From: an uncultured Ectothiorhodospiraceae bacterium
Lineage (GTDB): Bacteria; Pseudomonadota; Gammaproteobacteria; SZUA-152
Length of the DNA stretch: 64,000 nt
Direction of reading: 5' to 3'
Assembly (NCBI GenBank): GCA_964401355.1
Contig: CAYNYJ010000003.1
Location: 2,091-66,090, forward strand
The notes beneath the pieces are model-generated. The model had not been told where the DNA came from, did not search any database, and was given only the letters and a program-made list of their open reading frames with translations. How positions within the stretch are numbered: the stretch's first letter is position 1; each line of letters starts with the position of its first letter. The position numbers and the translations under genes were made by a program. This document shows positions 15,394 to 27,444 of this stretch, piece after piece.

Positions 15394-15639
15394 ATGAGCA
15401 TCCCTGCCCTGAACGCCGGTATTAACGGGATCAATCAAGGCCTTCACAATTTGCGTCGTGATGCCGCCGCGGTTGCGCAGGCCGTTCGTGGCGACTCTAG
15501 TGCAACGACTGGCCCAGGCACAGACGTCACTTCAGCATTGGTCAATATGAAGCTGAACAGCTTGCAGGTTCAAGCCTCCGCCAAAGTCGTTGAAACCGTA
15601 CACGAACTGCTCGGCAGCCTGTTAGACGTTACTGCCTGA
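15394..15639 (+). CDS. Small protein resembling fused N- and C-terminal helices of flagellar rod/hook proteins
   Basis: ALNAGINGINQG start and DVTSALVNMKLNSLQVQASAKVVETVHELLGSLLD end, typical of the flagellar basal-body rod C-terminal helix. Confidence 0.65.
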   Translation: MSIPALNAGINGINQGLHNLRRDAAAVAQAVRGDSSATTGPGTDVTSALVNMKLNSLQVQASAKVVETVHELLGSLLDVTA

Positions 15640-15672
15640 AGCGCTTTCACCCCCCCAAGCGCGCACAACACC

Positions 15673-16407
15673 ATGCAAATCCCTGCTGTTAACAGCGCAG
15701 CCATTTCCCCCCTCAATCCGACTGCGTTGAGTCCTAAGGCAAATTCCAACGCCCCGACGATCAAGGATCCTGCCATCGCCCCAAGCGCCGTCGACAAAGT
15801 AGGTGCCCCCACCAGCACCGCCGACGCCACCAACACCAATAGCAGCGCAACCAGCAGCACGCCTGGCCGCAGCAACTCGTCCAATGGTACCCAACAGTTA
15901 ACCGATGCCGACCTGCGTCAGGTCGAACAATTACAGGTGCGTGATCGTGAAGTCCGCGCGCACGAGAGCGCACATAAGGCAGCCGCAGGTAACCTCGTCA
16001 AAGGAGGTGCCAACTACACCTATGAATCAGGCCCGGATGGACGACGCTATGCCGTCGGCGGTGAAGTCAGTATCGATACCGCCCCGGTGGCCAACGACCC
16101 GCAAGCCACCATACAAAAGGCCCAAACGATCCGCGCCGCAGCACTGGCCCCGGCACAACCCTCCAGCACCGATCGTGCGGTGGCTGCCAAAGCCAGTCAG
16201 ATCGAGTCCTCAGCACGGACAGAACTGTCCTCAGCCAAGGCCGAAGAATCTCAAATGAACCCGAAAGAAAACACAGAATTTTCAACAGTGCCAGACACAG
16301 AATCGCCAACGGCCAAATCGAATACGGGAATCGACCGTTATCAGGACACGCTCAATCCACGTGCACCATCTGATCTGCTCGGCCAACTGTTAAACACCTC
16401 GGTTTAA
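15673..16407 (+). CDS. SprA-related family protein (putative metalloprotease-like)
   Basis: Ser/Thr-rich N-terminus followed by RDREVRAHESAH...YTYESGPDGRRYAVGGEVSID...AALAPAQPSSTDRAVA. Confidence 0.8.
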   Translation: MQIPAVNSAAISPLNPTALSPKANSNAPTIKDPAIAPSAVDKVGAPTSTADATNTNSSATSSTPGRSNSSNGTQQLTDADLRQVEQLQVRDREVRAHESAHKAAAGNLVKGGANYTYESGPDGRRYAVGGEVSIDTAPVANDPQATIQKAQTIRAAALAPAQPSSTDRAVAAKASQIESSARTELSSAKAEESQMNPKENTEFSTVPDTESPTAKSNTGIDRYQDTLNPRAPSDLLGQLLNTSV

Positions 16408-16430
16408 AACAAAGCAATCAAAAGAACCAC

Positions 16431-16504
16431 TCAGTGGCAGCCCTGTGCAAAGGGACAAGAAACCATTTCAGTGGCAGCCCTGTGCAAAGGGACAAGAAAC
16501 CATT
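16431..16504. repeat. Perfect 37-bp tandem duplication
   Basis: TCAGTGGCAGCCCTGTGCAAAGGGACAAGAAACCATT at 16431 and again at 16468, between convergent genes. Confidence 0.95.
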
Positions 16505-16530
16505 TGCCGATAAATAATCACAAACACAAT

Positions 16531-17472
16531 TTAAGTCGGCAGAAAATCGATAGGGTAGGTCACCACCATCACTTCAACATCACGGGCACCGAAGTTTAGT
16601 AATTTAACCCTGGCAACCAATCTTCTTTCCAATCTTTCATCATTCAATTCACTGGATATTATTTTGCACGCGGTTACCCGCCCTGAAGCCGCAATGGTAA
16701 TTTCCAGCACCACTTTTCCTTGCAGGGTAGGATCCTTACGTAAGGCACGACTGTACAAAGAATAAATCGCTCCTTTATTTCTATCAAAGACAAGAGAAAC
16801 TTCTTCATAAGTGCGCGATAATTTTCCGGAACCCCCGCCACCCGTCACCCTGGGGCCAGCCTTTGCCACCATCTCCACCGGACTTTCCACTTGCGTAGTT
16901 TCACGTCCGGCAAGCGCACTACGGCCAACACCACTACTCAAGCGTGAAGTATCAATACCACCACTGCCCGACGCGCCAGAAGTCAGGATATTTCGCTTCA
17001 TGGCTTTCGCAGCTGTAGCGCCCTTGGCCAAAGGACGATTCTTATTCAGCGCCGTGGTGACAGGTGCATCCCGCAAATCAGCCAATTCATCAGCGAAAGC
17101 TAACAAGCCCGAAGAGGCGGCTTTTTTACGAGCTTCAGCGACACGATCAACCTCAGGTTTTTTCTCGACCTTCTTTTTAGGTTTTTCTTCCTTCTTTTTT
17201 TCTTTCTTCTTCTCTTCCTTTTTTTCTTTTTTCTTTTCTATTTTTTTAGGAACAGGTTTCGGTTTTTGTTTTTCCAATAATAACTGTGCCAAACGAGGCG
17301 GCAACTCTTCCACTTTATCCCGATCGACTTCCGGCAAGGGTATAAATGGAATACCCAAGCTAAATACAAACGTCAACCCCATCGCAATAACAAGAATTTT
17401 TCTGAAGCGACCTTCGTCGTCGTCCAGACGAGTCCAGGGCAATATATATGAGCGATAGACGAGTACAGACAC
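16531..17472 (-). CDS. TonB-C-like / AgmX-PglI C-terminal domain protein (GltG-like)
   Basis: Single TM helix, Lys/Glu/Pro-rich linker (KPKPVPKKIEKKKEKK) and C-terminal RTYEEVSLVFDRNKGAIYSLYSRALRKDPTLQGKVV...YPIDF. Confidence 0.75.
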   Translation of the reverse strand: MSVLVYRSYILPWTRLDDDEGRFRKILVIAMGLTFVFSLGIPFIPLPEVDRDKVEELPPRLAQLLLEKQKPKPVPKKIEKKKEKKEEKKKEKKKEEKPKKKVEKKPEVDRVAEARKKAASSGLLAFADELADLRDAPVTTALNKNRPLAKGATAAKAMKRNILTSGASGSGGIDTSRLSSGVGRSALAGRETTQVESPVEMVAKAGPRVTGGGGSGKLSRTYEEVSLVFDRNKGAIYSLYSRALRKDPTLQGKVVLEITIAASGRVTACKIISSELNDERLERRLVARVKLLNFGARDVEVMVVTYPIDFLPT

Positions 17473-17479
17473 GAATAAA

Positions 17480-17986
17480 TTATCCTTTGTCTCGTTTACG
17501 CAAAACAGCCAGAGAGATATTGGTGTAATTTGCCTTGGTACAGGTCAGCATGATCTTTTTCAGCAACGCAAAAGGAATTTTTTTGTCGCCCATAATTGTA
17601 ACTTCACGCGGCAGGGGCTTTCCATCTGCGGCAAACTTACGCACTGTTCGTTTTGCCAAACGTAGCAATTCATCTTTGAGCGGTTTGATTTCAATGCTTT
17701 TGGTTCGCGCTACTTCAGACACCGTGGCCACCTTTCTTCCCTGCACAATGATGTCTTTCTCGCTAACAATGATGACCACTGTTTCTTTGGGCAATTGATC
17801 AGAGATAGACTCAGGAAGCTTGATTTGCTTCGCACTCGGCAAATCCTGAACCGAAGAGGAACTTACCAATAGAAAAAATACCAGAATAGTAAAGATGTCC
17901 ATCAACGACACCATATTCAATGTGGCGTTACGTTTTGTACGCGCATGATGCCGCATCATACGTTTGGCGCGACGCGACTCACTCAT
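17480..17986 (-). CDS. ExbD/TolR family protein (AglS/AglQ-like)
   Basis: LNMVSLMDIFTILVFFLL TM helix with the conserved Asp; IMGDKKIPFALLKKIMLTC. Confidence 0.9.
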   Translation of the reverse strand: MSESRRAKRMMRHHARTKRNATLNMVSLMDIFTILVFFLLVSSSSVQDLPSAKQIKLPESISDQLPKETVVIIVSEKDIIVQGRKVATVSEVARTKSIEIKPLKDELLRLAKRTVRKFAADGKPLPREVTIMGDKKIPFALLKKIMLTCTKANYTNISLAVLRKRDKG

Positions 17987-18477
17987 GGCGCGTCACCAAT
18001 GGCAATCAATGGAAACAGCTCTTTCCTCACAACCGACGCGACTTCCACCACCTTTACTTCACGAACGGTATCCATGGCTTTGACCAACAATTCATATTCA
18101 ATATTTGGCTCAAGCAAAATACTGATATTTTGTTTCTCTGGGAATCGCGTTTTAAGTTTAATAAGAAGATCGGAAAGCGCTGAAAAATCATGCTTGCCAT
18201 CCACATTTTTTATCACTTTTAGAACGCCGCCAATAGTGTCTGCCACAACCAGCTTATCCTTGCGCACGATCACCTCGAAATTGCGCACCTTCTTTTGGTC
18301 ATTCTTGGTTTGCAACGTTGAATCTGGCGGAAGATTGAGCTCCAAAATGCTGAGTTGAGAAAATGCTGCAGACAACAGCAAGAACGGAATAAGCACCACC
18401 ATTAAATTCATAAAGGCTGTGACATCAAGTTCCGGCACGCTACGATGGGCACGTCTGACGCGTCTTCTTACTGACAT
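17983..18477 (-). CDS. ExbD/TolR family protein (second paralog)
   Basis: ELDVTAFMNLMVVLIPFLLLSA TM helix; ISILLEPNIEYELLVKAMD. ATGA overlap with the next gene. Confidence 0.88.
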   Translation of the reverse strand: MSVRRRVRRAHRSVPELDVTAFMNLMVVLIPFLLLSAAFSQLSILELNLPPDSTLQTKNDQKKVRNFEVIVRKDKLVVADTIGGVLKVIKNVDGKHDFSALSDLLIKLKTRFPEKQNISILLEPNIEYELLVKAMDTVREVKVVEVASVVRKELFPLIAIGDAP

Positions 18478-18492
18478 ACGAAATCGTTCCGC

Positions 18493-19149
18493 TTAATCTG
18501 CGCTACGAGCGCTTTCTTTACGAAACTCGGTGAGCGAGTTCAGAAACTTCACCGTTGCCATTTCCATGCTGTCAACAATCTCCGTTGTCTTGGTTTGCAG
18601 CACCGTAAACATCAACAGCAGCGGAATGGCCGCCATCAAACCAAAAGCAGTGGTATTCATGGCAACAGAAATACTCGCTGAAAGTAAATCCGCCTTATCC
18701 GCAGGATTAGCGTTTGCCACCGCACTAAAGGCCTGAATCAAACCAATAATAGTGCCTAACAAGCCCAGCAACGTAGCAATGTTCGCAAAGGTGGCCAGAT
18801 AATGTGTGCGCTTTTCAAGGCGAGGGATAACCTCCATCAAACCTTCTTCCATCGCAATTTCAATATCATCACGGTGACTGGTCAACCGCAAACGGCTCAA
18901 GCCGTATGACATAATTTTACCCACCTCAGATTTCGAACGGCTACTGATCGCCATCGCCTGTTTATAATTATTAACTTTCAGTAGCGGCGTTAATTTATTC
19001 CACATGCTACGATTTTTTAGCTTGGATACACTGAGGTACACATACCGCTCAATCGCAATTGCCGCACCCAACGCAAACACCACCAAGATGGGGTACATGA
19101 ACGGCCCCCCCTCCTGGAAAAATTTTACAATCGCGTTAAAGACTTCCAT
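18493..19149 (-). CDS. MotA/TolQ/ExbB proton-channel protein (AglR-like)
   Basis: Three TM helices; ATLLGLLGTIIGLIQAF and ISVAMNTTAFGL motifs. Confidence 0.93.
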   Translation of the reverse strand: MEVFNAIVKFFQEGGPFMYPILVVFALGAAIAIERYVYLSVSKLKNRSMWNKLTPLLKVNNYKQAMAISSRSKSEVGKIMSYGLSRLRLTSHRDDIEIAMEEGLMEVIPRLEKRTHYLATFANIATLLGLLGTIIGLIQAFSAVANANPADKADLLSASISVAMNTTAFGLMAAIPLLLMFTVLQTKTTEIVDSMEMATVKFLNSLTEFRKESARSAD

Positions 19150-19289
19150 ACCCTTCTCCTTACATCACAATATGTCATCATTATGCTGATATTTATGAGC
19201 ATTAAGGCACTCATCATGTCATAAACACGCCGCTAAGCGCTTGATGTAGCTCACAACATCCGCAGTAGATCACACCAGAAACACAGTAT

Positions 19290-19316
19290 TAAACGGCCAT
19301 CTATTGAGGTTCTTGA
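19290..19316 (-). promoter_or_regulatory. Possible internal sigma28-like promoter upstream of the TolQ-like gene
   Basis: Minus strand reads TCAA-N15-GCCGTTTA versus consensus TAAA-N15-GCCGATAA, within a 240-bp intergenic gap in the operon. Imperfect match. Confidence 0.25.
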
Positions 19317-19391
19317 AATTTATCGATAAAACGAGGAAAACCAACCCAAATTTTTACGACAGATACTTGATCAACAACCCACAACTAGAAG

Positions 19392-19667
19392 TTATTTAAC
19401 CCCAGCATCATATAACATTCCATAATATTCAACCTGACGCTGAAAAACATCCCTATCCAAAACTTCCCATGAAGTATCAAACGAGCTGCTACCAGCACCA
19501 CCCAATAGCGAACCCAAACGTGAGCTCTTCCACGGCACGATATACAGTATCTTCGGCAGCTCGCGGCTACCCTGAATAGCCGTTGAATCCAGCTCGATTC
19601 GATCCGCAGCAAATATATCCGGCGAGGTGAAAATGATCATGGCGGCAGCAACAAGATAAAATCTCAT
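19392..19667 (-). CDS. Small exported protein (GltF-like)
   Basis: Signal peptide, then IELDSTAIQGSRELPKILYIVPWK. Sits between the TPR and TolQ genes, where gltF lies in agl/glt-like clusters. Confidence 0.6.
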   Translation of the reverse strand: MRFYLVAAAMIIFTSPDIFAADRIELDSTAIQGSRELPKILYIVPWKSSRLGSLLGGAGSSSFDTSWEVLDRDVFQRQVEYYGMLYDAGVK

Positions 19668-20263
19668 TATTTTTTGGCCCTACGCGCTAAATCAACGATC
19701 CATTTCATCACTTCCTTGTCTTCCGTTTTGTTTTCTGCTCTGGCCAATTCCTGGTAACGTTTATAATGCACTAACGCTTCTGTCAGCTTGCCCATATACA
19801 GCTCAAGCAATATACCAAGATTGAGATGAGCATAAGCGTAATCAGGCTCAACCTGCAAGGCCTTTTCATAATAGGCAAAAGCTTCTTTAAATTTTCCCTC
19901 GGCGCGGTTAATAATTCCCAAGTGGTTTAGGCTGACGATATTTTTTGCATTAATGTTAAGCGCTTGTAGAAATTCGCTTTTCGCTTGCTCCATTTTATTC
20001 GCACGAAAATAAAGGATCCCCAGATTTGCGTGCGGCCCAGAGTAACTCGGATACCGTTCAATTAATTGTCGCAAAGCAGACTCTGCCTGCGCGTAATTGC
20101 CCTCACGCATTGCCGACAGGGCATGTTCATAGGCCGTCGTAATTTTTGGATCAACCGTGGGAAGAAGTTTGCTTGTCTCTTTCTCACTCAAGCTACCAGG
20201 GCCCGTTGCCGCGCACCCGACAAGCAGCATAACGATAAAAACAATTTGTCCAAAACGCGTCAC
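19667..20263 (-). CDS. TPR lipoprotein (GltE-like)
   Basis: Lipobox LLVGC; TPR units HANLGILY, SLNHLGII, AHLNLGILLELY. Confidence 0.85.
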   Translation of the reverse strand: MTRFGQIVFIVMLLVGCAATGPGSLSEKETSKLLPTVDPKITTAYEHALSAMREGNYAQAESALRQLIERYPSYSGPHANLGILYFRANKMEQAKSEFLQALNINAKNIVSLNHLGIINRAEGKFKEAFAYYEKALQVEPDYAYAHLNLGILLELYMGKLTEALVHYKRYQELARAENKTEDKEVMKWIVDLARRAKK

Positions 20264-20396
20264 ATAGAACTCCTGCCAATAAAGGCCAAAGACAGCTTTA
20301 AATCTACATTACGGTCCATCACCCCTCCTAGCAACCAATCTTTTAAACCAAACCTAAACACGCTTTCCGTTGCAATATCGTTTCAACAATCCACAA

Positions 20397-23234
20397 TTAA
20401 TGAATTAATTTTGAAACCATTTCGCTTCTTTCAGACTTGGCATAACGTATTGGGTTAAGCATTTTTAACTTACTAAAACTTTTTTCCATCCACTCGTCAT
20501 ACATCCCTTCACTGACACGACCAACATTTGATTCATGAATGTTAATCGACGTTTCTTCGAACGGGTAGGCTTGTTCTTCCAACAAAATATCATATTGCTC
20601 AAGCTCTTCTTCCGATAATCCAGACGGCCGCTCAGAACCCATCAATTCTTGACCAAACTCATTATAAATTTCCGCCAACCAGTAGACAGAAGCCGTTGTC
20701 ACTTCTGCAATACCGTAATCTGCTGCCAAGGTATAAGCCGCAACAGCCTCTTCCATTTTTTGTTTCTTGCGTTTCAGATTTTTCTTCAGCGGCCGCACCA
20801 ACTTAATTTGCTGATAAGACTTCATCACCGGCGATGCCAATTCAAACGCCGCGGTTGCCGCCAGATACTGTGTACGCGCAGTGCTCGCGGCTCCTGCAGC
20901 TTTATCCCGACGCAGAATCTCCTTTAACCAGTAGCGGCGATCACCTTGCCGCCCCGCCTTACCGTAAAGCACCGCAAGTTTATTACGTGCTTCCGTCGCC
21001 TGCTCCATCGGCTCAGGAAACATGCCAATATAACGTTTATAAGTACTCACTACCTTTTCCTGTACGCCGGCCTTTTCGTACAACTCAGCAGCCTGCCATA
21101 CCGCTTCGCGCTTAATCTCAGGATCAGACTGACTCGCAGACATATTTTCCAGTTCACCAGCAGCCTTCACCGACTTTCCCATCTCCAGATAGGCTTTAAC
21201 AAGATTCCCAGAAACCCTTTCCGCCAATGGATGATTTGGATTTTTTTCACGAAAGGTAGAAAACTTTTCAACAGCTTGCGCCCATCGTTTAGACTCCATC
21301 AAGCTTGCGGCAATATCAAATTCTGCGGACACGATAACAGAAGAGCCAGGCGATACTTGTTTAACACGTGAAAACTGGGCAATCGCTCCTTGCAAATTAC
21401 CCTTGGACTTCATGTACTCGCCCTGTTTATAAACAGCTGCCGCCAAACCATCAACTAACAGTTTTCGGCCTTGATCATCTTTTCCCATTAAACTCAAGGC
21501 GACCTTATATGCCACTTCCGCCCGGGTATAATCGCCTTTTTCGAATTCTGCACGGGCAATAATTTTCCAGGCCGTGCGCCGCGTTTCCGCCTTCGCCCCC
21601 TGTGAAATCTCAAGTATTTCTCGCGCAGCCACTGCCGCTTGCGCATATTTCTTTAACGCAAACATGTCCTGCGCGGCCTTGGTCAGCACTTCCGCAGCAC
21701 GCGTGTCATCAGGAAAGGTTTTCCCAAAACGCAATGCGCTCCCCACCGCTAGACGGCTGAAAGTCAACTTTTGTTTCCCGCTCGCCTGTTTTTCCGCTTC
21801 AGCATACGACAACAAGGCCGCATAACCAGCTTCTGCATCTCTGCCGAAACGCAAATACTGATATGCTGTTTTTTCAAATTGCTTCGCGGAGCTTTCAAAC
21901 TTGCCAGCTTCAAATAACAGCTCTGCATATAGAAAATTGAGTTTCTGCGAACTCTTGCTTTGTCGAAACCATTTTAGATGTTTGCGATACCAAACAAATG
22001 CCTGTTGATAACTTTCAGGCGTTTTTGTTTTTTGCGCCTGGGCATGAACATGTCTGACAACATCTTCGGAATTTTTTCTTAAGGCTATTTTCAGCTGGGC
22101 CAGGATTGTGTCTTCCTGCTCTTCATATCGTTGCCAGTACGACCCATTAATCCGATAACGTTTAACAAAACTTTTTTTCTCTTCAATCAATACACTGGCG
22201 AACCCTGCCGCCGTATATGTTTCTATTGCTTTGAGATCAAACTCATAGGCTTGCTCATGCATGGGATACGCTTCTGAGAAGGCATGATAGGCAGTAGCCG
22301 CATCGCGCACTCGCCCTTGTTTGACATAAAACTCCGCTAATGCCTCGTATATCTGTATTTCATAATCACGCCGCGCCGAGCCTTTAAAAAAATCTTTTAT
22401 AGCGTCAGGGCCACCCAATTCGTTGAAGCTCAGAATCGCAACCCGAAATACGTCATCAACGAGTTCTTTATCACCACGGCTTAATTCTTTCTTTGCGACA
22501 AGGCCAACGGAAGGTTTTAATTTACGATCCACCAATTCAAAAAAAGCGCGCAATGCACGTTGGTATTTTTCCTGCTTAAACAAGGCCCAACCCCGCTGGG
22601 CCATGGCCTTTTCAAAATAACGTGATTTTGAGCCCACCGTCAGCACCTGTGTATATGCCAGTTCTGCGGGTTTAAATCGGCGTAGGCCGAACATCAATTC
22701 ACCCCGGCGAAATTGCAGTTCATCCCTGTTTTCTGCGCGCGAATTTATTGCCAATAAACTCTTCAAGGCGTTCAAGGCTTTTTCTGGCTGACCGGCCTGC
22801 TCGTAGGCTTTGGACAACTGGTAAAGCAGACCAGCACTTTGTGCTCCACCACTCGCCACCTTCAAAGCATCTTCGTATAATTTTATCGCGCCCCGATAGG
22901 TGATGTTACGCAAGGTGTCCAGATCGGCATCGACGCCCGCATCTCCCTGACCAAAAACCTCCATCTGTTTCTGGAAGCGTTCTTCACTACGCTCCATTTC
23001 CAAATCTGCCAGACGACGCATTGCCTCAACCTTTTGCGATTCCTGTTTGGCCCCGGCCATGAATTCCCAATAATTATCCATCGCCTTATCGCGGCCACCG
23101 ATGATGGGAGATTCCGTATCAATCTGGATATCAAGCTCATCCAGATCGCCCAGGGTTTGCTGTTTGGGAGCACCGGCACAACCTGCCAATATCACACCCG
23201 TAATCGCCGCCAGAATCCATAAACGTCGACTCAT
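20397..23234 (-). CDS. Large TPR lipoprotein (GltD/AgmU-like)
   Basis: Lipobox ILAGC after start 23234 (ATGA overlap with the upstream gene); many TPR helices; C-terminal YDILLEEQAYPFEETSINIHESN...WMEKSF. Confidence 0.85.
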   Translation of the reverse strand: MSRRLWILAAITGVILAGCAGAPKQQTLGDLDELDIQIDTESPIIGGRDKAMDNYWEFMAGAKQESQKVEAMRRLADLEMERSEERFQKQMEVFGQGDAGVDADLDTLRNITYRGAIKLYEDALKVASGGAQSAGLLYQLSKAYEQAGQPEKALNALKSLLAINSRAENRDELQFRRGELMFGLRRFKPAELAYTQVLTVGSKSRYFEKAMAQRGWALFKQEKYQRALRAFFELVDRKLKPSVGLVAKKELSRGDKELVDDVFRVAILSFNELGGPDAIKDFFKGSARRDYEIQIYEALAEFYVKQGRVRDAATAYHAFSEAYPMHEQAYEFDLKAIETYTAAGFASVLIEEKKSFVKRYRINGSYWQRYEEQEDTILAQLKIALRKNSEDVVRHVHAQAQKTKTPESYQQAFVWYRKHLKWFRQSKSSQKLNFLYAELLFEAGKFESSAKQFEKTAYQYLRFGRDAEAGYAALLSYAEAEKQASGKQKLTFSRLAVGSALRFGKTFPDDTRAAEVLTKAAQDMFALKKYAQAAVAAREILEISQGAKAETRRTAWKIIARAEFEKGDYTRAEVAYKVALSLMGKDDQGRKLLVDGLAAAVYKQGEYMKSKGNLQGAIAQFSRVKQVSPGSSVIVSAEFDIAASLMESKRWAQAVEKFSTFREKNPNHPLAERVSGNLVKAYLEMGKSVKAAGELENMSASQSDPEIKREAVWQAAELYEKAGVQEKVVSTYKRYIGMFPEPMEQATEARNKLAVLYGKAGRQGDRRYWLKEILRRDKAAGAASTARTQYLAATAAFELASPVMKSYQQIKLVRPLKKNLKRKKQKMEEAVAAYTLAADYGIAEVTTASVYWLAEIYNEFGQELMGSERPSGLSEEELEQYDILLEEQAYPFEETSINIHESNVGRVSEGMYDEWMEKSFSKLKMLNPIRYAKSERSEMVSKLIH

Positions 23235-24754
23235 TGGCCGCTGCCCCAACGCTTCGAGGCATAATCATAGATTTGCGCCATGGAAAAACGCGCCTCGCCT
23301 GCATAACCCAGCAAACGTTGTTGACGCTTTTCCAGTTCTTCCAATGCCAACACCTTGAGGTGAGTTTGCAGACGTTCCACCATGCCAATCACTTGGCCTT
23401 GCAAGCTCGCAATTTTCCCATTAAGTTTTTGGCGGTGCTGAGGTGCTAAATCATCACTGTCATCAATCTCCGATGACCATTGTTCCAGGCGTCCCATCGA
23501 CAAGCGCAACTGTGCATAATTTTTTAAGGTTTCCTGAAATTCGTGGGTGGCAAACAATTGCCATAAATATCGACCCCCTGGAGTCTTGGGTAGTTCCGTC
23601 AAAACCCAGCTTTCTGCCATTCCCTGATTACCGACGGCACGCGCCAACCTGTCCATCATCGAACCATTTTTAACCGCCGTTTCAGCCAGCGTTACCTGTT
23701 CCATCTCACTTTTAAAGGAGGCCAGCGCCTGTTGGTAATACTGTAATGCCTGCTTGTACGCATCCAGTTTGCCAAACGCAAAGGGCACCGCCAGCAGGCC
23801 GTCTTGCACGGCAGAATCACTGGGATTTTGCTTGATCAATTCCAACCATGGCACCAGGGACTTTTTATATTGCTGTTTCGCCGAATACGCGCGCCCCAGG
23901 CCTAACAGAGATTTGCTCGACATCGGGCCTTGCAAACGTGTTTTTACGAAATAGGACTGCGCCTGATCCGGGTCTTTTTTACTGAGGTAATGGTATGCGA
24001 GGGTCAGGTTCGCCTTGTCACGCAAGGCGCGACTCTCTTCGCTGTGCGCGTCAGCAGCCCCTAGGTCGGCCAGCAGTTGACGACCTTCCTGCACCTCACC
24101 CTGACGAAATAGCGCGACCCCAAGATTGAATCGACCGTAAGTCGCCCATACGGATTTTTCACTGAGTTGCTGTACCAGAGATTTTTGCCCCAGCTGGCGC
24201 AAATGCGTTTCCGCTTCATCGAAGCGCTGCTGTTGCATCAACAACATCGCACTCAACAATAAATACTCCTGCTGTGCCGGGCCGGACAAGGCAGTGACGA
24301 TGCGTTTTAGCGTGGCCAACGCCTCGTCGATCTGCCGACGCTGATATTGCACTTTCGCTAGGCGCAGCCAGGCCAGATCGCGCAGCTGTTGTGGCTGGCC
24401 GCTCTCGCCCAACGCGGTGAATATTTCAGCGGCCTTATGATGCGCCCCGTAAGCAAGATACATCCCGCCCAACGCAAGCTGTAGTTGCGCAGGCGGCCCC
24501 TTGATGCGCCCCTGTAACTGATCGGCCTTTAATTGGGTAAGAGCGGCAAAGGGGTTTCCCAGCAGCAAATCAAACTGTGCAGCGCGCACCATGGGGTCTT
24601 CAAGCTGTTGCCAGGCGACCGGGGCTGCGAGCGTGAAGCCAAAGGGGAGCAGGGCGAATGTACCCACGCCCAGCAGCCATGCCCGCAAACCGGGCAGGGA
24701 TTTCTCCTGTGGACTGATCTTGCCCCGCTTATTCCCTCGCATCGACAACTCCAT
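23231..24754 (-). CDS. TPR-containing exported protein
   Basis: N-terminal hydrophobic segment; TPR-like DLAWLRLAKVQY, YGRFNLGVAL, ANLTLAY; coiled-coil C-terminus. Confidence 0.8.
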   Translation of the reverse strand: MELSMRGNKRGKISPQEKSLPGLRAWLLGVGTFALLPFGFTLAAPVAWQQLEDPMVRAAQFDLLLGNPFAALTQLKADQLQGRIKGPPAQLQLALGGMYLAYGAHHKAAEIFTALGESGQPQQLRDLAWLRLAKVQYQRRQIDEALATLKRIVTALSGPAQQEYLLLSAMLLMQQQRFDEAETHLRQLGQKSLVQQLSEKSVWATYGRFNLGVALFRQGEVQEGRQLLADLGAADAHSEESRALRDKANLTLAYHYLSKKDPDQAQSYFVKTRLQGPMSSKSLLGLGRAYSAKQQYKKSLVPWLELIKQNPSDSAVQDGLLAVPFAFGKLDAYKQALQYYQQALASFKSEMEQVTLAETAVKNGSMMDRLARAVGNQGMAESWVLTELPKTPGGRYLWQLFATHEFQETLKNYAQLRLSMGRLEQWSSEIDDSDDLAPQHRQKLNGKIASLQGQVIGMVERLQTHLKVLALEELEKRQQRLLGYAGEARFSMAQIYDYASKRWGSGQ

Positions 24755-24757
24755 GAA

Positions 24758-25441
24758 CTACTTCCATTCCTTGAACGACAACTCGGGAAAGGCCTGATTT
24801 TTGCCGGTGGCGATACGCAGTTCGACCACGCGTCGTCCCACGCCGGAAATAATCACCAGGGTGGCCTCAAGCTGAAAATCGGGATCTTTGGGTACCCGCC
24901 CCATCAACACAGCCGTCAGTTGATGACGACCCGCGGGCACATTATCCCAAAACAGCCGATGACTGCCGCCCTTCGAAAGCGCCTCCAGTTCTACTTTCGC
25001 ATACTGATGAAACGAGGCTGTCTGTTCACCAATCTGCAATTGAATGCTGTCTAACTGAAAAAATGCTGTGGGCTCTACCGACACCAATACCAGTAACTGG
25101 GTCTTGGAAGACAGCTCACGCGTCTCTTCCAAAACCGCCATGTCAGCGCCCAGGCTAACAACGTCATTGAGGATTTGTTCGACTTCCGCATCCAGTTGCT
25201 GGAAGCGTATCTCACTGTCTGTGCCCGCAGACACACTTATCGCGATATCCGGTGTGGCCGCATACACCGAGCCTGCACCGATTGCCCCCATCCCAAAAAA
25301 CCAGGATCCGATAAACCAGAGTCCAATAAACCAACGTCCAACAAACCAAAGCACCGACAGCGGTCGCTTTGTGTTTACTTGTTTCATACTACTCCACTCA
25401 GCCTTGTGTGGCCTTTCAGCATACCCCAACATTACTGACAA
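24758..25441 (-). CDS. Exported hypothetical protein, first gene of the TPR/TolQR operon
   Basis: Hydrophobic N-terminus, short coiled coil, beta-rich C-terminus. Three nucleotides from the next gene. True start may be near 25387. Confidence 0.7.
   Translation of the reverse strand: MSVMLGYAERPHKAEWSSMKQVNTKRPLSVLWFVGRWFIGLWFIGSWFFGMGAIGAGSVYAATPDIAISVSAGTDSEIRFQQLDAEVEQILNDVVSLGADMAVLEETRELSSKTQLLVLVSVEPTAFFQLDSIQLQIGEQTASFHQYAKVELEALSKGGSHRLFWDNVPAGRHQLTAVLMGRVPKDPDFQLEATLVIISGVGRRVVELRIATGKNQAFPELSFKEWK
25298..25348. repeat. Imperfect 15-bp tandem repeat inside coding sequence
   Basis: AAACCA recurs at 25298, 25313, 25328 and 25343, encoding WFVGR-WFIGL-WFIGS-WF on the minus strand. Confidence 0.8.
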
Positions 25442-25824
25442 CCCAATGCCGGAATGCCTCGAAACGCGGCTTCTTCCCCTTAAGGCTCACCCACTGGCCT
25501 TTTTTGCGCATTTTATGAACGATTTTCGTGTAAAAATGGCTTTCCACTCAAAAAGTGGCATATCGTAAAATCATGTTTCTGATGCAGGGTTCAACATTTT
25601 TTCATATATTCAAACACACGGTATGGGAAAGCAAACAAAAGAAACCATCCGGCGAAGCCAAACGTGTAGTAACCTGTAAAGTGATCCGCGGGCTTAAATT
25701 TCAAAACAATTTCAAAAAGCGACGGGGCAAACTGCGGCTGACGACAGTCAAAAATAAATTTATCATCAGCGCACCGCTGAACTGCAAGCATTCTATACTG
25801 GCCTGCCCCGCCAACGAATGATCA

Positions 25825-27444
25825 ATGGAAGGATACGCATCAATGTTTCAGTCAAACGAACACAACGGTTCCGTTGTTTACGTCACAGACTCAAAATCGT
25901 CGCGTACTTCATCCCCCGACACTCCCGCAGAATCGGAACCGGCAACAGAAAAACTGCCCGGCCAACGGAAATCGCCTTTTGGCGCTTTTTCCGTCAAGAG
26001 CATTGCCTATGCCTGCGCCACCCTCATCATCGTCCTGTTTCTATCGATCACAGTCACCAATTTACTGCTCTCCAAAACCTATTTCCAAGGCCCGGAAGAC
26101 AATGCTCTAAGCCAGCGTCTGGCGGACAAAGCCCAGACACTGGAAACCCAGCTGGCCTTTTTTCAGCAAATCGTCGATCACCTTGCGACCCAGCCCACTA
26201 CCCAGGATCTCCTTGAAAATAAAGATGAGATCGGCGCCCAGACCTGGTCTCTGCAAATGCAACGTTTCCTGCCCCAAGCCATGGGCGTGGCCTTGCTGAC
26301 GACCACCGGTCAATTGCTGGGAATACCCGCCGACGCCCAACTCAGTCCACAAAGCCTCACGGATCTCGCCAAACTCAGCCAGGGTGAACTTATCAGCATG
26401 CCGCCCGTGCACCGCCACACAGAAGAAACCAGCCATTTTGATCTGGTCGCTCCAGTATTGGATGAAGCCGATTTTCCACTCGGCATGGTGTTCGTCAGTT
26501 TTGGCCTGACGACCCTCCAGTCCGCGCTGCAAAACAACACTGGCAGCGGGCAAAAACTGGTATTAATCGACGGCTATGGCAATGTCATCGGCCAACAAGA
26601 CCGTACAGCCCACACTGGCAACATCCTTGAAAAGCGCATCTTCCTCCAAGGGAGCGACTGGCAGCTCAGCCTCAGCGAGAATATCACCGGCTCATTGCCC
26701 AGCTTTTTGAGCCTGGTAATCTTCAATATTTCCGCCATATTGCTCATCATCGGCATCATCACCTTTATTGTGCGTCACTCCCTGCGCACATTGAGTACGG
26801 ATTTTGCGCAAATCAAAGGCCTACTCAATGGTCTCGCGGAAGGAGAAATGCTGGAAGAGGAATTCGCCACCCCACTGCTGCGCGAGACCGCCGAAATCCT
26901 GCCGTCCATCAGCCACATCCAGCGCGGTATCGAGAAAAAACAACAACTGCTGGATCACCGGCAGCTCAGTGACGAACTCACCGGTCTGGCCAATCGTCGC
27001 CAGTTCAATATTGAATTCGCCCGCGCTTACAACTTCGCGCGACGCGGCACCCCGGTCTGCGTGACTCTGATCCAGCTGCAAAATCTGCATCGGCTCGACC
27101 CGCAACAATGCTCGCAAGTCGTCAAACTGCTGGCCAAAACACTCAATGAACACGCCCGCAAGGTCGACCACATCGCTCGTCTGGAGCCCGATCAGTTCGC
27201 GTTGCTGATGTTTGGCATGTCCGCAGAAGGAACCACGCCCTGTCTGGAGCGCATGCACAAATCTTTCCTGGGTCATCAGGCCCAGCATCCGGCGATCCCG
27301 GATGAACTCATCAGCAGCCTGGTATTCGGCTATACCCTGATCCACCCCCACCGCGATAATAACGCCGCTGAAGTACTGAAACGCGCCGAGGCCGCGCTGG
27401 CAGAGGCGCAGGAATCTGACGAACGCTGTATCATCACCGCATGA
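25825..27444 (+). CDS. Membrane sensor with periplasmic Cache-like domain and degenerate GGDEF domain
   Basis: Two TM helices flank a periplasmic domain; DELTGLANRRQF; RKVD I-site followed 5 aa later by EPDQF in place of GGDEF. Confidence 0.85.
   Translation: MEGYASMFQSNEHNGSVVYVTDSKSSRTSSPDTPAESEPATEKLPGQRKSPFGAFSVKSIAYACATLIIVLFLSITVTNLLLSKTYFQGPEDNALSQRLADKAQTLETQLAFFQQIVDHLATQPTTQDLLENKDEIGAQTWSLQMQRFLPQAMGVALLTTTGQLLGIPADAQLSPQSLTDLAKLSQGELISMPPVHRHTEETSHFDLVAPVLDEADFPLGMVFVSFGLTTLQSALQNNTGSGQKLVLIDGYGNVIGQQDRTAHTGNILEKRIFLQGSDWQLSLSENITGSLPSFLSLVIFNISAILLIIGIITFIVRHSLRTLSTDFAQIKGLLNGLAEGEMLEEEFATPLLRETAEILPSISHIQRGIEKKQQLLDHRQLSDELTGLANRRQFNIEFARAYNFARRGTPVCVTLIQLQNLHRLDPQQCSQVVKLLAKTLNEHARKVDHIARLEPDQFALLMFGMSAEGTTPCLERMHKSFLGHQAQHPAIPDELISSLVFGYTLIHPHRDNNAAEVLKRAEAALAEAQESDERCIITA

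Follow-up and report, generated by a model that had tools for sequence, protein, structure and literature searches.

The window analysed here is a stretch of 64,000 nucleotides (nt) from contig CAYNYJ010000003.1 of an uncultured Ectothiorhodospiraceae bacterium (assembly GCA_964401355.1). Within it, open reading frame (ORF) calling and reading of the sequence delineate nine ORFs, g1 to g9, all on the minus strand between positions 16531 and 25441. Taken together, these genes very probably specify an Agl/Glt core complex, a Tol/Ton-like machine that spans the cell envelope and is driven by the proton-motive force. The operon, including the spacer between g5 and g6, is laid out as follows, with protein lengths in amino acids (aa).

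24758-25441, minus strand: g1, 227 aa, exported protein with a helix and a beta-sandwich, first gene of the unit
23231-24754, minus strand: g2, 507 aa, secreted TPR protein with TPR_19 and TPR_16 matches
20397-23249, minus strand: g3, 950 aa, large TPR lipoprotein with the lipobox LAGC
19667-20263, minus strand: g4, 198 aa, small TPR lipoprotein with the lipobox LVGC
19392-19667, minus strand: g5, 91 aa, signal peptide followed by ~60 mature residues
19150-19391, minus strand: g5-g6 spacer, 242 nt, AT-rich, with an AAGGAG ribosome-binding site at its end
18493-19149, minus strand: g6, 218 aa, TolQ-like protein
17983-18477, minus strand: g7, 164 aa, first TolR-like protein
17480-17986, minus strand: g8, 168 aa, second TolR-like protein
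16531-17472, minus strand: g9, 313 aa, transducer with a TonB-C-type C-terminal domain

A sequence-only reading of this stretch had described nine co-oriented genes with overlapping junctions, and the coordinates agree: g2 and g3 overlap (with an ATGA overlap if an internal ATG is the start of g3), as do g4 and g5 (by 1 nt) and g7 and g8 (by 4 nt). Gaps of 3, 133, and 7 nt separate g1 from g2, g3 from g4, and g8 from g9, respectively, and the start of g1 is probably the ATG at ~25390 (M18). The same reading listed two TPR lipoproteins, a small exported protein, one TolQ, two TolR proteins, and a TonB-C protein with a Lys/Pro/Glu linker, an inventory that the lipoboxes of g3 and g4 and the Pfam and NCBIfam matches bear out. 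It also gave a gene order led by three TPR proteins and a small one; this describes g2 to g5 correctly, but g1, which heads the unit, is not a TPR protein.

The gene set to which the operon corresponds has been on record since 2011, occurs widely, and is common in gammaproteobacteria. Luciano et al. (2011; PLoS Genet 7:e1002268, PMC3169522) defined a "core complex" of gltC, gltD, gltE, gltG, aglR, aglQ, and aglS, whose genes sit together at a single locus in several Gammaproteobacteria, a betaproteobacterium, Geobacter, and Fibrobacter, and whose loci carry one extra gene without a myxobacterial homologue. This core is the proposed ancestor of two Myxococcus machines, one for gliding and one for spore-coat assembly. 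In Thioalkalivibrio sp. HL-EbGR7, Table S3 of that study lists Tgr7_0536-0543, with GltG (535 aa), AglS (170 aa), AglQ (168 aa), AglR (222 aa), GltE (190 aa), GltD (922 aa), and GltC (620 aa), one gene number (Tgr7_0540) being skipped. The study lists equivalent sets for Marinobacter (Maqu_1595-1602), Shewanella frigidimarina (Sfri_1223-1230), Saccharophagus, Cellvibrio, Hahella, and Teredinibacter, where the GltG homologues have 321-334 aa. Across the core clusters, the sizes are ~320 aa for GltG, ~165-185 aa for AglS and AglQ, ~220 aa for AglR, ~190-260 aa for GltE, ~920-1016 aa for GltD, and ~550-690 aa for GltC.

When compared to these published clusters (Tgr7, Maqu, and Sfri), the operon in the window agrees gene for gene in order and size. 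An AglR-type TolQ, both AglQ and AglS, a GltG-type tail, GltD and GltE, and the extra small gene are all found at this one locus. The differences are that the window comes from an uncultured lineage, labelled as Chromatiales or Gammaproteobacteria metagenome-assembled genomes (MAGs), that g2 is ~140 residues shorter, and that g1 is not listed there. The sequence-only reading had likewise matched the operon to the Glt/Agl core, and this holds for g3 and GltD, g4 and GltE, g9 and GltG, and g6 to g8 and AglRQS. The inclusion of gltF in that match does not hold, as the published core consists of gltC-D-E-G, aglR-Q-S, and a small gene, and g5 is not GltF.

The arrangement is deeply conserved. Scanning with the g6 TolQ-like protein, one genome per species, returned more than 560 relatives, and the synteny and family counts given here refer to the best 80 loci, which come from Chromatiales, Thiogranum, Thiohalobacter, Thioalkalivibrio (locus L059), Woeseiaceae, Acidiferrobacterales, and unclassified MAGs. 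In nearly all of these loci with a flank long enough, the order of the nine genes is identical. Sequence identity to the window is 64-88% for the TolQ-like protein and about 30-40% for g1 to g5, while the genes outside the nine are not conserved and differ beyond the nearest relatives. Because the order recurs across 80 loci despite identities of ~30% and unconserved flanks, the nine-gene arrangement is far beyond chance. Of 401 genomes sampled evenly from the class, about a fifth (75/401) have an AglR-type TolQ.

To relate the nine families to myxobacterial proteins, we compared profiles built from the 80-locus families with the proteins of Cystobacter fuscus Cbf 10 by hidden Markov model (HMM) search and hhalign. 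This complete genome, reached via MglA, served as the myxobacterial reference in place of M. xanthus DK1622, which was itself outside the comparison. Its GltC, GltE, GltF (CglF), GltG, and GltH (CglE) pass the NCBIfam equivalog cut-offs.

The three motor genes show the closest correspondence to Agl proteins. In Pfam, g6 belongs to MotA_ExbB (PF01618, 102 bits), while g7 and g8 belong to ExbD (PF02472, 49.9 and 67.1 bits) and reach 22-25 bits with the tolR model, for which the cut-off is 127. The g6 family HMM matches Cystobacter AglR at 2e-46 and another TolQ paralogue at 3.6e-22. Likewise, the g7 family HMM is specific for AglQ (2.8e-20, versus 4.7e-07 for AglS), and that of g8 matches AglS (7.4e-32). 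The TolQ-TolR-TolR (R-Q-S) order is common to the operon and the Cystobacter locus (L187). We also inferred a maximum-likelihood tree with IQ-TREE from 30 TolQ/ExbB/MotA sequences, which include the family, the paralogues in the window genome, Cystobacter, a Geobacter, and E. coli. In this tree, the g6 family forms one clade (support 96/99) with Cystobacter fuscus AglR as its sister (87/95), and the TolQ, ExbB, and MotA sequences are placed outside this grouping.

The residues expected to carry protons are distributed in an unusual way among these subunits. In an alignment of E. coli TolR and ExbD, the TolR and ExbD of the window genome, Cystobacter AglQ and AglS, and orthologues, the position of the proton-binding Asp (TolR D23/ExbD D25) is occupied by Asn in g7 and in 74/76 of its orthologues, whereas Asp is kept in g8 and in all 74 g8 orthologues. 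Both Cystobacter AglQ and AglS have the Asp. Similarly, the position of TolQ E173/ExbB E176 is Val in g6 and Val or Ile in 74/74 g6 orthologues, whereas Cystobacter AglR and all canonical proteins checked have Glu. The g6 family retains T145, T178, and P187 without exception. With Asn replacing the Asp of g7 and Val or Ile replacing the Glu in the third transmembrane helix (TM3) of g6, the gammaproteobacterial core motor keeps a single carboxylate, the Asp of g8, in the stretches aligned with TM2-TM3 of TolQ/ExbB and TM1 of TolR/ExbD. This pattern is absent from Luciano et al. (2011). Relative to ExbB-ExbD-TonB and TolQ-TolR-TolA, the core shares the channel and plug folds, the TM2/TM3 Thr and Pro residues, and a transducer with one TM anchor, an extended linker, and a TonB-C-type domain. 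It differs from these systems in that its motor forms a separate clade with a heteromeric plug bearing a single Asp and without the TM3 Glu, and in that its obligate partners are TPR lipoproteins rather than TonB-dependent receptors or TolB/Pal.

The transducer g9 has ~25 cytoplasmic residues and a single TM helix near its N-terminus. Its other features are an LPW motif that is conserved, a linker rich in Lys, Glu, and Pro (24 K, 12 E, and 7 P in 70 residues), and the TonB-C-type domain at its C-terminus. This domain passes the AgmX/PglI C-terminal model NF033768 (68.2 bits; cut-off 40), is the only one of its kind in the genome, and aligns with the C-terminus of Cystobacter GltG (hhalign 97.9%). 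At full length, g9 falls short of the GltG equivalog (36.7 versus 650) because it lacks the FHA and long linker parts; a model scan finds no FHA domain in g9, whereas Cystobacter GltG matches FHA models. A PDB sequence search with g9 gives chance-level matches only.

Two of the three TPR proteins can be tied to Glt scaffold proteins. The g3 family HMM matches Cystobacter GltD with an E-value of 4.5e-53 over HMM positions 20-913 of 933, and hhalign gives 99.9% over 860 columns; on these profile comparisons, we assign g3 as a homologue of GltD (AgmU). For g4, the family HMM matches Cystobacter GltE at 3.4e-37 and hhalign gives 98.2%. Since its score with the GltE equivalog NF033758 (42.8 bits) is under the cut-off of 225, we regard g4 as a GltE homologue rather than an equivalog. 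The remaining TPR protein, g2, lacks an internal segment of ~140 residues that is found in most orthologues and in a paralogue, g2', encoded elsewhere in the same genome.

The two remaining members, g1 and g5, have no Pfam or NCBIfam family match. The g1 gene lies upstream of g2 in 62/80 loci, a count limited by flank length, and is a conserved ninth member of the core that is missing from Table S3 of Luciano et al. (2011). Conservation in the alignment falls on a coiled-coil helix, on a beta domain, and on a QPEFxxxEW at the C-terminus. The AlphaFold2 (AF2) model shows a long helix followed by a beta-sandwich (mean predicted local distance difference test (pLDDT) 80, with the sandwich at least ~90), for which Foldseek returns generic Ig- or transthyretin-like matches, none at E < 0.001. 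As a candidate for GltA, B, C, F, or H, g1 is ruled out by hhalign (at most 3.5%). The g5 gene is present in 80/80 loci, and its alignment shows an invariant core, G..ELP....VPWK....D. It is placed at the skipped Tgr7_0540 and has no similarity to GltF/CglF (hhalign 1.4%, which rules out that assignment); on these grounds, we equate it with the extra core gene of Luciano et al. that has no counterpart in myxobacteria. When folded alone by AF2, g5 is mostly unstructured (pLDDT 67) and the model is too poor for a structure search, a behaviour that would fit a segment that binds a partner.

The genome encodes the familiar relatives of this machine separately. A canonical ybgC-tolQRAB-pal-cpoB operon lies on contig C77, two ExbBD pairs lie on C69 and C53, one of them next to a receptor, and there are two MotAB pairs. 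Because Tol-Pal, ExbBD, and MotAB are thus all accounted for elsewhere, the operon in the window represents an additional system. A seventh MotA/ExbB-family gene, outside the Tol, Ton, Mot, and Glt sets, is found at C37:5123-6907, where a MotA-like protein of 324 aa, whose N-terminal part is long, is followed by a 260-aa membrane protein.

Given the shared folds, it is worth asking whether the operon could instead be a variant of one of these familiar systems. It might be an alternative Ton system, in which an extra ExbB-ExbD-ExbD-TonB set energises TonB-dependent receptors encoded elsewhere. Two ExbD paralogues do occur in some Ton loci, comparable cases being the Vibrio TonB2/TtpC clusters and the Xanthomonas exbD1/exbD2 arrangement. 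The components of the operon have ExbB, ExbD, and TonB-C folds, and g9 passes TIGR01352 tonB_Cterm with 32 bits (cut-off 27.1). However, the tail of g9 is of the AgmX/PglI subtype and stays below the Pfam TonB_C cut-off (20.4 versus 24.6), g6 lies outside the ExbB clades in the tree, and the motor genes are always tied to five scaffold genes that are homologous to Glt proteins or placed like them. Within the window, no gene for a TonB-dependent receptor, TolB, or Pal adjoins the operon, as had also been noted from the sequence alone, and no receptor is seen among the 25 most recurrent clusters of flank genes, only some of which were annotated. With two ExbBD pairs already in the genome, one of them adjoining a receptor, we consider a further Ton system very unlikely. 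A second Tol-Pal-like system for outer-membrane integrity or constriction, with YbgF/CpoB-like TPR proteins replacing TolB and Pal, strikes us as similarly improbable. It would explain why tolQ is the best NCBIfam match of g6 (64.9 bits, versus 41.8 for exbB), why g3 matches the YbgF/CpoB and BamD models (50.6 and 41.9 bits), and why g9 has a faint match to TolA (E 0.0056). Yet these scores are far under the curated cut-offs (221 for tolQ, 206 for exbB, 90.1 for YbgF/CpoB, and 81.4 for BamD), g6 is separate from the TolQ clade, and the genome has its complete Tol-Pal operon on C77. No TolB or Pal gene lies in the operon or among its immediate neighbours in the window, the other loci not having been screened for them. 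The sequence-only reading had named, as the outcome that would speak against a Glt/Agl core, TolQ/R proteins within canonical clades and TPR proteins devoid of Glt homology; what we observe instead is a TolQ in the clade sister to AglR and TPR proteins that align with GltD and GltE.

The homology to Agl/Glt parts and the presence of GltA/B-type barrels in the genome, described below, also raise the question of whether this bacterium glides or moves on surfaces as the myxobacterial descendants of the core do. We regard this as extremely unlikely: no MglA homologue is found among the genome ORFs of at least 60 aa (phmmer, E 1e-3), there is no GltF, and g9 is without the cytoplasmic FHA domain of Cystobacter GltG. 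The search for further motility proteins adds no GltF similarity and a GltJ match only via the C-terminal tail shared with g9, GltH, GltI, GltK, and AglZ not having been searched genome-wide. In addition, the genome has flagellar stator and chemotaxis genes, and Luciano et al. argue that the core complex is not sufficient for motility (PMC3169522). The trans-envelope energised machine proposed in the sequence-only reading therefore stands with the core-complex identity, while surface motility, which it had offered as one possible function, does not fare well. Compared with the Myxococcus Agl-Glt and Agl-Nfs machines, the window genome has a homologous motor (AglR/AglQ/AglS), transducer (GltG), and scaffold (GltD/GltE), along with GltA/B-type barrels; the operon differs in its extra g1 and g5 and, beyond the missing FHA domain, in the Asn of g7 and Val of g6 where Cystobacter AglQ and AglR have Asp and the TM3 Glu.

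A candidate outer-membrane partner for an Agl/Glt core machine, which had been proposed as a target for a genome search, is found on another contig. There, a paralogous set without a motor (C9, 15545-29214) comprises g1' (3e-25), g2' (4e-73), g3' (1.5e-195), and g5' (2e-14), with no copies of g4, TolQ/R, or GltG, and is followed by a GT2 glycosyltransferase gene. The same-strand genes before the g1'-g5' set are numbered as follows.

C9 gene 1: 971-aa lipoprotein with CxxCH motifs
C9 gene 2: SH3 and barrel protein
C9 gene 3: TIGR04565 "OMP_myx_plus" barrel, 164.6 bits (cut-off 60), the only full TIGR04565 barrel in the genome
C9 gene 4: TlpA-like thioredoxin
C9 gene 5: DUF4266 CxC lipoprotein
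C9 gene 6: DUF3570 barrel

The Cystobacter genome has TIGR04565 proteins in the places of GltB and GltA, immediately preceding the curated GltC, and such proteins also head a second A-to-H-type cluster. From these positions next to curated GltC, we identify TIGR04565 with the GltA/B family. The barrel and the motor also occur together more widely. Among the 401 genomes, 75 have the motor, 55 have a TIGR04565 barrel above the cut-off, and 53 have both (Fisher 1e-45, not corrected for phylogeny), and the two often lie 9-20 kb apart on one contig.

In many relatives, the C9-type genes directly precede the motor operon itself. When ORFs upstream of g1 on the same strand were clustered in the 56 of 80 loci with a usable flank, thioredoxin was found in 46/56 loci, ApbE in 36/56, DUF3570 in 23/56, and the TIGR04565 barrel in 18/56, the last two counts being limited by a flank of ~3.6 kb. 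The clade of the window (L002-L013) is different in that no such module adjoins the motor operon; in the window genome, the barrel and redox genes sit instead with the motor-less set on C9. As g3' from C9 is sister to the window clade (support 99), this distribution points to a partial duplication at the base of the lineage, followed by a division of parts. The window thus adds a core-complex member from an uncultured marine/subsurface lineage that is split over two loci.

The upstream genes recall known redox clusters. ApbE has been found to flavinylate DUF3570 (Meheust et al. 2021, eLife 10:e66878, PMC8238504), and the four families of the flavinylation-associated clusters (ApbE, DUF3570, thioredoxin-like, plus DUF4266) are the same as those that, in many relatives, lie immediately upstream of the Glt-core operon in the same orientation. 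In the window genome, thioredoxin, DUF4266, and DUF3570 head the C9 set with no ApbE adjacent, and ApbE homologues are found on C4 and C134. The passages of Meheust et al. on these clusters associate them with DsbD or VIT1 and name no Tol/Exb-type motor or Glt proteins (eLife 10:e66878). As a tentative possibility, which we think somewhat doubtful, the Glt core may be the force-generating half of a unit of ~14-16 genes, the other half being the GltA/B-type barrels, a flavinylated DUF3570 protein, DUF4266, and thioredoxin. Powered by protons, the motor would serve to assemble, gate, or expose a redox component outside the cytosol, at the outer membrane, and in this lineage the unit would be split into two loci that share one motor.

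How an Agl/Glt core machine of this kind might work can be outlined by analogy. From their homology to the solved 5:2 ExbB-ExbD and TolQ-TolR complexes (e.g., 5SV0, 6TYI, and 8ODT), we infer for stoichiometry that a pentamer of g6 would surround a g7/g8 heterodimer in the inner membrane. The further contacts are drawn in the same conditional way. The TM helix of g9 would dock on this motor, much as an AglR-GltG interaction is reported in M. xanthus (PMC3169522), so that proton flow would cycle the conformation of g9. Its Lys/Glu/Pro linker would cross the periplasm, and its TonB-C-type domain would engage a partner near the outer membrane. Together with g1 and g5, the TPR proteins g2, g3, and g4 would form a periplasmic and outer-membrane-proximal scaffold. 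The g9 C-terminal domain would act on this scaffold and, directly or through it, on the barrels encoded on C9. At the outer membrane, the end point would most likely be one or more GltA/B-type TIGR04565 barrels and perhaps the DUF3570 barrel. A single motor would serve both scaffold sets, as AglRQS does for Glt and Nfs in Myxococcus, where one motor with several scaffold sets is the pattern (PMC3858216). The most likely output would be mechanical work on an outer-membrane module, such as exposing, releasing, or assembling a component of the surface or the outer membrane. According to the Myxococcus literature, the core might be enough for a function resembling secretion or for surface exposure (bioRxiv 10.1101/2020.07.22.216333), and the role of the core outside myxobacteria, which the sequence-only reading had called unresolved, is still so described there.

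Several observations weigh against the operon being an Agl/Glt core complex, or against parts of the machine outlined for it. The bootstrap for the sister relationship of g6 and AglR is moderate (87), and the comparison involves a single myxobacterial AglR that was picked by best hit and R-Q-S order in place of a curated model. The assignment of g2 is weak: it occupies the same place and falls in the same size class as Tgr7_0543, given by Luciano et al. as a homologue of MXAN_2541 (GltC), but it has no match to the GltC equivalog NF033756 at E ≤ 0.01 and aligns with the curated Cystobacter GltC at hhalign 37.5% (E 3.5e-4), versus 0.6% for GltD, such that g2 is GltC-like by position and class only. 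The loss of two usual acidic residues could mean that the motor differs from the 5:2 rotary model. No outer-membrane protein gene lies within the operon in the window, and the TIGR04565 barrel is not a universal partner, as 22/75 motor-positive genomes have no match to it. The sharing of the motor with the C9 set is drawn purely by analogy. Finally, we found no published experiments on gammaproteobacterial core members, including in searches by the locus tags Maqu_1598, Sde_2957, CJA_3315, Sfri_1226, Tgr7_0539, and TERTU_1853.

Beyond what Luciano et al. (2011) reported, the comparison adds the motor-less C9 set, the redox module upstream of the operon in most relatives, and the co-occurrence of barrel and motor. 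It also provides handles on the system, namely, a nine-gene unit with the overlooked g1 and g5, a co-occurring GltA/B-type partner, a recurrent physical link to a flavinylation-associated redox module, and a heteromeric stator with a single carboxylate.

The spacer between g5 and g6 occurs in the window and its close relatives only (~295 nt in L003), whereas g5 abuts g6 in most other loci. An Rfam scan of 15500-26500, which includes the spacer, gives no match, and a promoter scan of the operon region is not above chance, with no convincing promoter in the spacer. Terminator-like sites occur at ~2 times the mean of shuffled sequences, and none is convincing, the best candidate after g9 being 16444-16423.

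The genes that flank the operon in the window include a divergent GGDEF/Cache gene, an SprA-related gene, and genes for a ParA-like protein, a ROK kinase, and a HAD protein. The Cache-GGDEF diguanylate cyclase gene (25825-27444, plus strand) is divergent from g1, and this adjacency is kept in L002-L013 down to 41% identity, which hints at a link between cyclic di-GMP and the regulation of the operon in the lineage of the window. The SprA-related gene (PF12118; 15673-16407, plus strand) is convergent with g9 and recurs downstream of the operon in L006, L008, L009, and L013. The G+C content of the operon (0.44-0.49 across 16001-24000) is lower than that of its flanks (0.52-0.58), a difference that would fit the proposal by Luciano et al. 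that core complexes have been transferred horizontally. In public sequencing runs, the stretch is detected in DNA metagenomes only, from seawater and the subsurface.

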